Of a stretch of DNA of 33,817 bases, positions 1,055 to 2,569 are shown one piece after another. Made by a program: the position numbers and the translations under genes. The notes under the pieces were generated by a model. The model was not told the DNA's origin and made no database searches. It worked only from the letters and a program-made list of their open reading frames with translations. The stretch is from the UHGV virus genome UHGV-2163408. One strand, written 5' to 3'. Positions within the stretch are counted from its first letter, which is position 1; every line of letters starts with the position of its first letter. The stretch is from a virus.

Positions 1055-2023
1055 TTAGATTTCTGGTTTCATTCTTCCGAAAACCTTTTCTATTCCTTTT
1101 TCGTATTCTTCTCTTGTCTCACTCATCGCTGCGACACCAAGAAGCTTACCGATATGCTGACGCAAAGCCTTGACACCAATTTCAGAAAGGAACAGATGCA
1201 ACTTATCAGATTGTTTTCCGTTCTCGTCTCGGCTGGCTCTAATTTGTTCAAGGATTTTACCTTTACTCTTTGCTAGCGGGGTGTATATCTGCATGTTGGT
1301 TAGCTGCCCAAAACGAATAGGCCGTCCTTTCTCTGGCCTATTCAGGCCGTACAGTCGATACCACTCCTCGTATAGCTCATCTGGAAATTCCTTTTCATAT
1401 TGACGAGCCTCTTCACGAACAAACGCTTTGAACTCGTCAATGACAGCCTGAACTTCTGGACGATAACCAGCAAGCGCATACGCAACCCCCTTAATTCCCG
1501 CCTTAGCGGAGGCATTAATAAGTCTCTGTGCTGCGGCGGCTGCCTTTAACCGTGATTGTGGTAGATCGTCATTATCTTTGGCTTCTATTAGTGCCCTACC
1601 AATATCAACAATTGCTGTAATGTCATAACCTAACGCTTGATGAACGGTTTTAGACTTCGAAGTAAGTTGAAATTTATAGGGATTTTCCATTTTTCGCTGC
1701 AATTCTAGATCTCGGTATTTGCTCATATACTGAGCGCCAAGCAGTTGATCTAAATCCCTGGCATGTTCACCAATCCCTAGCAACTGAGATAATCCAGTTT
1801 TCGTAACAACGACAGTTTTCGACTCGTCATCCAGTACATAACATTCAGCATCAATGCCAAAATCATCTAAAAAGTTACCACGATGAGTTGCCCTGAGAAT
1901 CTTACTTTTCCATCTTGCAGCAGCTGCTTTCTTTGCTATTTCAGAACGCTGCTCTTTAGTCAGCGACTTTGCGCGAGCGATCCCGCCCTTAGCTTTCCCT
2001 TCGCCACTTTTCTTTTCAGTCAT
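1055..2023 (-). CDS. Hypothetical phage cargo protein with basic N-terminal segment (function unknown)
   Basis: ORF 1055-2098; preferred start is the ATG at 2023 (MTEKKSGEGKAKGGIARAKSLTKEQRSEIAKKAAAARW...), 323 aa. Lys/Ala/Arg-rich N-terminus suggests nucleic-acid binding. No confident family assignment from memory. Confidence 0.55.
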   Translation of the reverse strand: MTEKKSGEGKAKGGIARAKSLTKEQRSEIAKKAAAARWKSKILRATHRGNFLDDFGIDAECYVLDDESKTVVVTKTGLSQLLGIGEHARDLDQLLGAQYMSKYRDLELQRKMENPYKFQLTSKSKTVHQALGYDITAIVDIGRALIEAKDNDDLPQSRLKAAAAAQRLINASAKAGIKGVAYALAGYRPEVQAVIDEFKAFVREEARQYEKEFPDELYEEWYRLYGLNRPEKGRPIRFGQLTNMQIYTPLAKSKGKILEQIRASRDENGKQSDKLHLFLSEIGVKALRQHIGKLLGVAAMSETREEYEKGIEKVFGRMKPEI

Positions 2024-2024
2024 A

Positions 2025-2114
2025 ATGCAAGCACCTTTGTTGTGATGTATGCTTGCATTATATGCACTGTACACACATACAAGCAAGCATAAAACCAAAA
2101 CAAAATGCTTGCAT
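2025..2114. promoter_or_regulatory. Array of four 10-bp palindromic sites ATGCWWGCAT in divergent promoter region
   Basis: Read directly: ATGCAAGCAC 2025-2034, ATGCTTGCAT 2049-2058, AAGCAAGCAT 2081-2090, ATGCTTGCAT 2105-2114; spacing 24, 32, 24 bp; sites 2 and 4 share the 12-mer ATGCTTGCATTA. Confidence 0.5.
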
Positions 2115-2179
2115 TACAACCGCGCTACTCCAACTACACATTATCATCTGGTATCCTGCACAAAACTAAGGAGGTTGGT

Positions 2180-2569
2180 GTGAAGCAATTTCTTGCTGCT
2201 ATGTTCTTATTCATATCTTTTGGGGCTACAGCAGAGTGCTGGGTCGTTGGAGATATGCGCGGAATAAGCTATTCAGAACGAAATAATTTCCATCCGGAAG
2301 AAGATGGTTTTAGTGGAACATTCATCATTAAGACAAGCGGTGAAGATGCTAGCATCACATATTCTGGGACAGATGCGGGCGGCATGGCTTACAAAGTATT
2401 GTCTAAAAACTCCATCATAGGAATCGGCGCGAATGGCGAAACTCAACGCGTTATCGACTCATGGGTAATACATCCTACTGGAACAGTTTTAATGTCAAAA
2501 ACCATTTCCGGTTATGGAAATATGGATTCAACCAAAGCTTTTGTTGGAAAAGTAAAAAGAAAATGTTAG
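2180..2569 (+). CDS. Hypothetical secreted protein (predicted Sec signal peptide)
   Basis: GTG start at 2180 preceded by AAGGAGG at 2168-2174; N-terminus VKQFLAAMFLFISFGATA-E has a basic residue, hydrophobic core and an A-x-A-type cleavage site; 129 aa. The ATG at 2105 given in the ORF track has no ribosome-binding site. Confidence 0.5.
   Translation: MKQFLAAMFLFISFGATAECWVVGDMRGISYSERNNFHPEEDGFSGTFIIKTSGEDASITYSGTDAGGMAYKVLSKNSIIGIGANGETQRVIDSWVIHPTGTVLMSKTISGYGNMDSTKAFVGKVKRKC

Follow-up and report, generated by a model that had tools for sequence, protein, structure and literature searches.

The Hex protein of phage 434 was named more than 40 years ago for excluding phage P22. Hex is short for "heterologous exclusion": P22 is excluded by Salmonella lysogens of lambda-imm434 but not by hex- lysogens, and within the Hex family this phenotype is known for 434 Hex alone (PMC3564112). 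The mechanism published for it is cytoplasmic and consists in protecting the repressor from RecA. A 61-residue fragment of the protein, sHex, protects the repressors of 434 and P22 from RecA-stimulated cleavage in vitro, and hex- lysogens display more spontaneous induction in recA+ cells but not in recA- cells (PMC3564112). The same study, whose Hex open reading frame (ORF) of 158 amino acids (aa) starts 24 codons upstream of the annotated start, mentions neither a signal peptide nor the periplasm or a membrane (PMC3564112). P22 itself carries the exclusion protein SieA, encoded between gene 16 and mnt. A further group of phage proteins is defined by the P63C domain, which was reportedly first described among phage transcription-regulator domains; a literature search found no functional study of P63C.

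Relatives of Hex and P63C lie side by side in the window analysed here, that is, the whole stretch of 33,817 nucleotides (nt) of UHGV virus genome UHGV-2163408. The window represents a P22-like prophage and matches one in E. coli G749 with 100% identity. Between its gp16-type gene and mnt are found a 129-aa Hex-family ORF (2180-2569, plus strand, GTG start) and a 323-aa ORF with a P63C domain (1055-2026, minus strand, start MTEKKSGEGKAKGGIARAKSLTKEQRSEIAKKAAAARW), separated by a divergent intergenic region of 153 bp. An earlier sequence-only reading of this DNA had named the two, standing in place of sieA, arc, and ant, as its best candidate for an uncharacterised exclusion or conversion module. 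Both ORFs proved real, each with many conserved homologues. The joint explanation that we regard as best, with a probability of about 0.55, is that they are two independent, self-contained morons between gene 16 and mnt, one a periplasmic excluder of the Hex family and the other a self-repressing P63C gene. Both families were already in the databases, the small one with a name and a known phenotype, and the locus does not represent a new system. What is new and can be tested is the link between Hex and the sieA slot, a set of family-wide export features at odds with the published Hex mechanism, and a four-site array in front of the P63C gene.

A Hex relative in the sieA slot

In a blastn comparison with P22, only three stretches could be aligned: the start of the tailspike gene, mnt (75% nucleotide identity), and window positions 2149-2182. 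The last is a 34-nt leader on the plus strand, 100% identical to P22 13828-13861, which holds the Shine-Dalgarno sequence AAGGAGG (2168-2174) and, after a gap of 5 nt, the GTG start codon (2180) of the 129-aa ORF. In P22, the annotated sieA promoter lies directly upstream of the matching stretch; a candidate sieA-type -10 element, TGGTATCCT, was dropped after a check against the coordinates of that promoter. RefSeq places the start of the small gene at an ATG at 2201, but the start at 2180 is preferred because homologues have an ATG where this gene has its GTG. The leader is found ahead of three different genes, encoding SieA in E. coli elppa4, a membrane coiled-coil protein in phage 611R6, and the 129-aa protein in Salmonella phage Emek. 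Since the leader is identical through the sieA start codon and is common to three different genes, the sieA ORF has been replaced precisely, as a cassette, by the small gene, with the sieA leader and ribosome-binding site retained. Of the proposal that the pair replaced sieA, arc, and ant, what stands is that the sieA ORF was exchanged, and by the small gene alone; arc and ant are simply missing from the window, a common variant among P22-like phages.

The position of the small gene is that of sieA, between gene 16 and mnt and under the sieA leader, and it adjoins gp16 in this slot at all 80 of the small-gene loci examined in IMG/VR, a viral contig collection. The gene is present in 147 of 5426 complete E. 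coli genomes, and a genome-wide locus search with a narrower family alignment yielded one locus. Its likeness to sieA extends to the orientation, to a product predicted here to be located in the envelope, and presumably to the purpose, namely blocking the entry of P22-like genomes. By contrast, the two proteins have no sequence or fold relationship. The 129-aa protein has no Pfam match to SieA (PF26849), and whereas SieA is a multi-pass inner-membrane protein, the small protein is modelled as an all-beta barrel and is predicted to be soluble and exported, with no membrane helix after its signal peptide. The other occupants of the slot, SieA and the protein with one membrane helix and a coiled coil, are likewise envelope proteins. 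The sieA leader appears to be a fixed expression socket for interchangeable envelope proteins, which would make it useful for finding more exclusion genes.

The coiled-coil cassette, the third found under this leader, has a product of about 109 aa in which a single membrane helix at the N-terminus is combined with a long coiled coil (L001:5156-5485, phage 611R6). It also occurs at loci L039, L041, L050, L051, L055, and L056, and has P63C as a neighbor as often as the Hex-like gene does.

Searches of Pfam, NCBIfam, PADLOC, and PDB sequences gave no useful match for the 129-aa protein, which falls in phrog_2651 of PHROGs (function not annotated). An exhaustive HMMER search returned 86 distant cluster representatives, nearly all of 125-135 aa. 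Relaxed tblastn against phage genomes then gave full-length matches of 28% identity in Sf6 (gene 38), HK446, HK633, Sf101, and phage 434, the identity to 434 Hex being 28% over 100% of the mature protein. The phage 434 homologue (L115:2375-2851) is annotated as "repressor protection protein" and corresponds to hex; the identical gene in Sf6 encodes gp38. Pairwise BLASTP between the 129-aa protein and 434 Hex gave an E-value of 2e-11, and hhalign of a 66-member family profile against 434 Hex gave a probability of 99.84% (E 2.5e-30) over 123 columns, covering the whole length. Judged by these alignments, the 129-aa protein is a full-length distant homologue of 434 Hex. It resembles Hex and the other members of PHROG 2651 also in size and in being encoded by a single prophage-borne gene. 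They differ in location, since the small gene adjoins gp16 under the sieA leader, whereas hex follows cI in 434 and Sf6, in 434 on the PRM transcript; this is a difference of location and not of family. Profile searches, which the sequence-only reading had proposed as a check, thus left the 129-aa protein without a Pfam family but identified it by hhalign as Hex-like, so that as a family it is not uncharacterised; the 323-aa protein was assigned to PF10546.

The N-terminus of the 129-aa protein, (M)KQFLAAMFLFISFGATA|ECW, resembles a Sec signal peptide, in that a hydrophobic core follows a Lys-containing start and the motif A-T-A stands ahead of Glu19. The predicted signal peptide comprises residues 1-18 (2180-2233, plus strand) and would leave a mature beta-barrel of 111 aa running from Glu-Cys-Trp to the terminal Cys. 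In 434 Hex, a similar N-terminus, MIRIAALLSILLTTSANS|ECW, is followed by the same E-C-W, and its C-terminal end, VGTCNQ, shares a V-G-x-C motif with the small protein. Across the 66-member alignment, C20 is invariant, G28, W95, and C129 are nearly invariant, and a hydrophobic leader is evident. The invariant Cys sits two residues past the predicted cleavage site, and the mature chain has about 110 residues, Hex included. The AlphaFold model obtained with the family alignment has a predicted local distance difference test (pLDDT) score of 95 and consists of one N-terminal helix, the leader, followed by nine strands. The 129-aa protein is probably periplasmic, as its exported-protein features had already suggested to the sequence-only reading. 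Structural matches of the small barrel, considered with periplasmic lysozyme inhibitors (MliC/PliC) and calycins in view, are generic, the top ones being unrelated barrels, and the UniRef name "OstA-like" carried by one distant homologue was rejected as being without any support. The sHex fragment starts at Glu43 of the published 158-aa ORF (PMC3564112), a residue that is also exactly the first past the cleavage site predicted here for Hex (SANS|ECW).

A pathway can be proposed from these features. The Hex-like gene would be expressed in the lysogen from the promoter of the sieA type, and its product would leave the cytoplasm through Sec and lose its leader by cleavage after Ala18. In the periplasm, the mature protein would fold into a small beta-barrel, its two ends joined by a disulfide between Cys20 and Cys129, and there it would hinder genome delivery by superinfecting P22-like phages, substituting for SieA from the periplasmic side. 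The genetic phenotype of the Hex family is exclusion of P22, and the prophage considered here is P22-like; for the small gene, the idea of an exclusion function thus gains support from Hex homology. A Hex relative in the P22 sieA slot, together with conserved export features, offers a concrete and testable alternative to a cytoplasmic Hex and links two classical exclusion systems.

Several points count against a periplasmic excluder. Identity to Hex is about 27%, so the function may have diverged, and export is deduced from sequence features and family conservation. Distant relatives stand alone in chromosomes, for instance between the atp operon and metA, and the ancestral role may not have been anti-phage. 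Finally, the one biochemical study of Hex treats the protein as cytoplasmic (PMC3564112), which is at odds with action in the periplasm. This published activity of the Hex fragment furnishes the main competing reading for the small gene, according to which the protein is a cytoplasmic lysogeny stabiliser that blocks RecA-stimulated autocleavage of the repressor and not a phage excluder. The recA-dependent extra spontaneous induction of hex- lysogens fits such a role, as does the inhibition by sHex of 434 and P22 repressor cleavage in vitro (PMC3564112), given that the prophage here is P22-like. It seems unlikely nonetheless, because the signal-peptide-like N-terminus and the Cys pair at the ends of the mature chain are conserved across the family, and because the complete beta-barrel that is predicted would be impossible for a 61-residue fragment. 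Moreover, distant members are found at non-prophage chromosomal sites with no repressor nearby, and the gene considered here occupies the slot of an envelope-acting exclusion protein and does not lie beside the repressor.

Alternatively, the small barrel could be a periplasmic inhibitor or immunity protein directed against, for example, a cell-wall hydrolase or a type VI effector, and would then serve host fitness. Distant Hex relatives do stand alone, some of them in variable islands beside toxin-antitoxin genes, and in Silvania confinis (L019:5646-6387) a Rap1a type VI immunity gene is followed, after 14 bp, by a Hex-family gene of 47% identity. However, this is the single adjacency of its kind, the structural matches are generic and come without a Pfam or NCBIfam family, and the one genetic phenotype of the family is phage exclusion. 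We regard this role as improbable, and retain the periplasmic excluder as the preferred reading of the small gene.

The P63C gene and its four-site control region

The 323-aa protein matches PF10546 over residues 200-287 with 52.7 bits against a cut-off of 26.1, a match also found in all 76 aligned P63C homologues, and phrog_2384 with an E-value of 1.7e-104. It shares a P63C domain above the Pfam threshold with the known PF10546 proteins (the C-terminus of Mx8 p63, ST933Wp35 of 933W, ORF23 of ST104, and PHROG 2384). With the P63C proteins of 933W and SPN9CC it further shares its overall length, an N-terminal GG-x-ARA...ARW motif, and the status of a single-gene unit in temperate phages. A large protein collection contains 2117 homologues, the named ones being all "P63C domain-containing" or "hypothetical". 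AlphaFold (pLDDT 75) confidently modelled an alpha/beta domain at about residues 44-150 and a helical C-terminal half with the P63C domain; a basic helical hairpin occupies residues 11-40 at the N-terminus.

PADLOC models include that of BstA. With PADLOC 2.0 at E-values up to 1, neither window protein gave a match, nor did the P63C homologues of L011 (E. coli) and SPN9CC, and the 933W P63C protein gave only a weak, chance-level match to a Type I restriction specificity model (E 0.0056). A sequence search against solved structures found no match for the 323-aa protein, NCBIfam gave nothing useful, and Pfam searches with residues 1-45 and 40-200 at E-values up to 10 returned nothing.

The most distinctive feature of the gene lies upstream of it. 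Four ATGCAAGCAT-like decamers, with the motif TGCAAGCA/TGCTTGCA, are arranged in alternating orientation at 2025, 2049, 2081, and 2105. Site 4 (2025-2034) abuts the P63C start codon, and site 3 (2049-2058) lies directly downstream of a TATAAT hexamer (minus strand, 2062-2057). Site 2 (2081-2090) contains a -35-like TTGCTT (minus strand, 2086-2081) located 18 nt from the TATAAT, and site 1 (2105-2114) is the farthest from the P63C start. The promoter was deduced from the sequence; a simple promoter scan did not list it, because its -35 matches at only 3 of 6 positions. In the 33.8-kb window no further exact sites are found, and matches with one mismatch occur elsewhere at chance frequency.

The array is nearly invariant among prophages whose P63C proteins are only 54-77% identical, and it can be recognised upstream of homologues in other loci and hosts, for example in Burkholderia phage Bups phi1 (49% identity). 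We compared 64 unique upstream regions of P63C proteins that are 49-100% identical. At least four sites in the order forward-reverse-forward-reverse are carried by 58 of them, and the other six have fewer. Position-wise scoring of 31 regions gave about 2 bits per position for the cores and about 0.2-0.9 bits for the spacers. The spacings in these regions are 22-24, 31-32, and 23-24 bp, TAtaAT abuts site 3, TTGCTT falls inside site 2, and site 4 ends 1-3 nt ahead of the start codon. The TGCAAGCA array thus sets the P63C subfamily considered here (at least 49% identity) apart from its distant members. Variants with fewer sites look like deletions between repeats. At L013:5892-6012, 56 bp have been lost exactly between two copies of TAATGCAAGCAT, which removed sites 1 and 2 together with the -35 and left a two-site version; two-site versions also occur downstream of Q (L076, L110). 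A TACAGTG in the spacer between site 2 and the -10 (window 2063-2080) is conserved upstream of many P63C genes, though not of all.

How the four sites might act can be considered at the level of either RNA or DNA. An imperfect inverted repeat of about 100 nt (2017-2122, minus strand) spans all four and would form a long hairpin as minus-sense RNA. The hairpin in the P63C sense has a predicted energy of -52.3 kcal/mol (z -7.6), compared with -34.1 kcal/mol for the plus strand, and is more stable than its complement because of G-U pairs; Rfam returned only microRNA-precursor-like matches for it, which are spurious and due to the long stem. It would bury the P63C ribosome-binding site and AUG in transcripts arriving from upstream, such as late read-through, but not in those from the internal promoter. 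However, the hairpin is at most a lineage-specific addition, because the spacers of other lineages are not complementary. An explanation of the sites by an RNA hairpin alone was rejected, and protein operators are preferred, because the cores stay invariant where the spacers are non-complementary and because the predicted transcription start falls within site 3. The hairpin could still matter in read-through late transcripts.

With their invariant cores, free spacers, and overlap with the promoter, the four sites look like operators. Since the P63C gene is their sole constant companion, self-repression is the simplest reading, and we infer that the P63C protein binds the four sites and represses its own promoter. 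The protein would be cytoplasmic and made from a sigma-70-like promoter of its own, and binding over the -35, the -10/+1 region, and the start codon would keep its level low in the lysogen. The unit would also have its own terminator, a bidirectional intrinsic-terminator-like hairpin, CCCACC-TGAC-GGTGGG (1025-1050), with A6 on one flank and TTT on the other. On the minus strand this hairpin reads CCCACCGTCAGGTGGGTTTTTT and lies directly past the P63C stop codon, the gene's own strand 3' of the stop being CCCACC-GTCA-GGTGGG-TTTTTT; Rfam gives weak sroH-terminator-like matches at 1027-1069 on both strands. As to what P63C does downstream, a prophage-encoded anti-phage or regulatory role is favored because of the positions in which the gene occurs (after cI, after Q, and in the sieA region). 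A part for P63C in exclusion, and its casting by the sequence-only reading as the DNA-binding component, are matters that we can still only infer.

Some observations speak against a self-repressing P63C. The protein has no sequence or structural link to any DNA-binding fold, and the array is absent upstream of distant P63C proteins, although the N-terminal motif is common to both groups. A host factor could bind the sites instead, or the sites could act as RNA structure. Another view is that P63C is a regulator of the antirepressor type in place of Ant, or a late phage function, and is not expressed in the lysogen. Such a role would suit a gene that points the same way as the late operon and lies between genes 16 and 9, in a prophage from which arc and ant are absent. 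It is rather improbable, since P63C coexists with intact arc and ant in many prophages and the hhalign probabilities against P22 Ant, 933W Roi, and KilA-N Ant all remain below 2% (0.1-1.3%). The gene also has its own promoter-like site and terminator, and homologues lie right after cI, a position of lysogen expression. Self-repression from the four sites therefore remains the favored reading of the P63C gene.

Two genes that assort independently

The P63C gene, which is not in P22, is an insertion with the sieA-type leader on one side and the mnt terminator on the other; the corresponding interval of P22 contains orf59a and non-coding DNA. In related prophages it coexists with sieA, arc, and ant, and the suggestion that it replaced arc and ant is wrong. 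An identical protein, WP_000136767, is found with SieA, the Hex-like gene, another cassette, or nothing in the sieA slot, and with arc and ant present at some of its loci and absent from others. Homologues of 54-77% identity occupy the same position in loci that have the complete immI region (mnt-arc-ant), those of 62-80% identity follow a cI-type repressor in Klebsiella prophages, and others, in Enterobacter and Serratia prophages, are flanked by the gene for the Q antiterminator and by the lysis genes. More distant P63C genes, with less than 30% identity, follow cI in SPN9CC/ST104 and in Erwinia phage Midgardsormr38, or are found in the nin region of 933W and beside int in Burkholderia DC1. 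Among complete E. coli genomes, 46 of 5426 carry the gene at a coverage of at least 80%. P63C is a mobile, self-contained unit, and its patchy presence among relatives, taken with its promoter-like site and terminator, would make it a moron. The four-site array marks this unit and also provides a direct experimental handle on a widespread family. Right after the repressor, as in SPN9CC/ST104, Midgardsormr38, and the Klebsiella prophages, P63C homologues take the position of lambda RexAB or of BstA in Salmonella phage BTP1. In contrast to such post-cI, lysogen-expressed defences, P63C lacks similarity to any PADLOC model and has no detected KilA-N domain.

A synteny comparison across P22-like prophages, another check suggested by the sequence-only reading, shows the two genes assorting independently. 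Whereas their divergent orientation had been described correctly, their pairing is not conserved: the Hex-like gene and P63C are neighbors in only 10 of the 80 IMG/VR small-gene loci. On its other side, the small gene of IMG/VR and related loci has either no neighbor or one of several, namely P63C, a ClpP-like protease, a 138-aa protein, or an antitoxin with a Panacea domain accompanied by its putative partner toxin. Conversely, about 31 P63C loci in P22-like contexts include about 9 with the Hex-like gene, about 9 with the coiled-coil cassette, 2 with SieA, and about 10 with none. The pairing recurs in three lineages (L035, L060, and L093), in which the small protein is 99%, 57%, and 33% identical and P63C is 100%, 79%, and 70% identical; we read this recurrence as two common occupants of adjacent slots. 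The earlier view of this locus as a hotspot is borne out: it gathers accessory genes of a type that prophages express in lysogens. The rival proposal joins the two genes into a single module for exclusion or conversion, with DNA binding assigned to a cytoplasmic component and the other component placed in the periplasm. In its favor one can cite divergent transcription from the shared 153-bp region, the nearness of array site 1 to the sieA-type promoter region, and the recurrence of the pairing in three diverged lineages. It is nevertheless very improbable, given how few small-gene loci have P63C as a neighbor and that the P63C partner is about equally often the unrelated coiled-coil cassette, sometimes SieA, and often nothing. 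Moreover, close homologues of P63C occur by themselves behind cI or Q, and Hex itself works in 434 and Sf6 without an adjacent P63C gene.

The reading as two independent morons can be taken a step further, though tentatively. Hex-family proteins, 434 Hex included, might all be Sec-exported, disulfide-stapled periplasmic barrels that exclude P22-type phages by interfering with their ejection-protein conduit or cell-wall passage, with the sieA slot serving as an exchange site for unrelated envelope-acting exclusion cassettes. The P63C subfamily, for its part, would be an anti-phage system of one gene that represses itself and is carried, along with its control region of four operators, from one lambdoid hotspot to another. 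If the Hex family is indeed periplasmic, the published cytoplasmic, RecA-related mechanism of Hex needs re-examination.

Flanking genes and minor observations

On one side, the locus is bounded by the gp16-type DNA ejection gene (2594-4435, minus strand), identified from its annotation and from Pfam P22_gp16 matches in related loci. Its stop lies 24 nt from the stop of the Hex-like gene, and the ejection genes gp16, gp20, and gp7 are all on the minus strand. On the other side, mnt (788-1039, plus strand) is kept, as the sequence-only reading had noted, and encodes an 83-aa protein with an Arc-like ribbon-helix-helix (PF03869, E 2.8e-22) and an Mnt C-terminal domain (PF11423, E 2.2e-18). Beyond it lies the 5' part of the tailspike gene, corresponding to the head-binding domain of P22 gene 9 (1-652, minus strand; blastn to P22 16160-16542, in agreement with the RefSeq annotation). 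Between mnt and the tailspike gene, a perfect palindrome, AGACCAC-A-GTGGTCT (710-724), looks from its form alone like an Mnt-operator-like site. If it is an operator of the Mnt type, Mnt may control a promoter that now reads directly into the tailspike gene.

The P63C position constitutes a second variable slot beside the sieA slot, with other cargo at L002:2797-3670 (Emek), at L018:2178-2627, and at several of the loci L117-L196. Examples of this cargo are small proteins of 138 or 149 aa, a ClpP-like protease encoded after mnt, and an antitoxin with a Panacea domain next to its putative partner toxin. One locus (L044, IMG/VR 2545824644_000015) is rearranged, with the Hex-like gene between P63C and the tailspike gene and not beside gp16. 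In Silvania confinis, the Hex-family and Rap1a genes lie beside EH_Signature and SNF2-helicase genes, which we read as putative Zorya-like defence genes. Finally, the Hex-family barrel is matched by 3 stretches of the metagenomic protein P0200 (834 aa) and by 5 of P0224 (1669 aa), so that this domain can occur as tandem repeats in large proteins.

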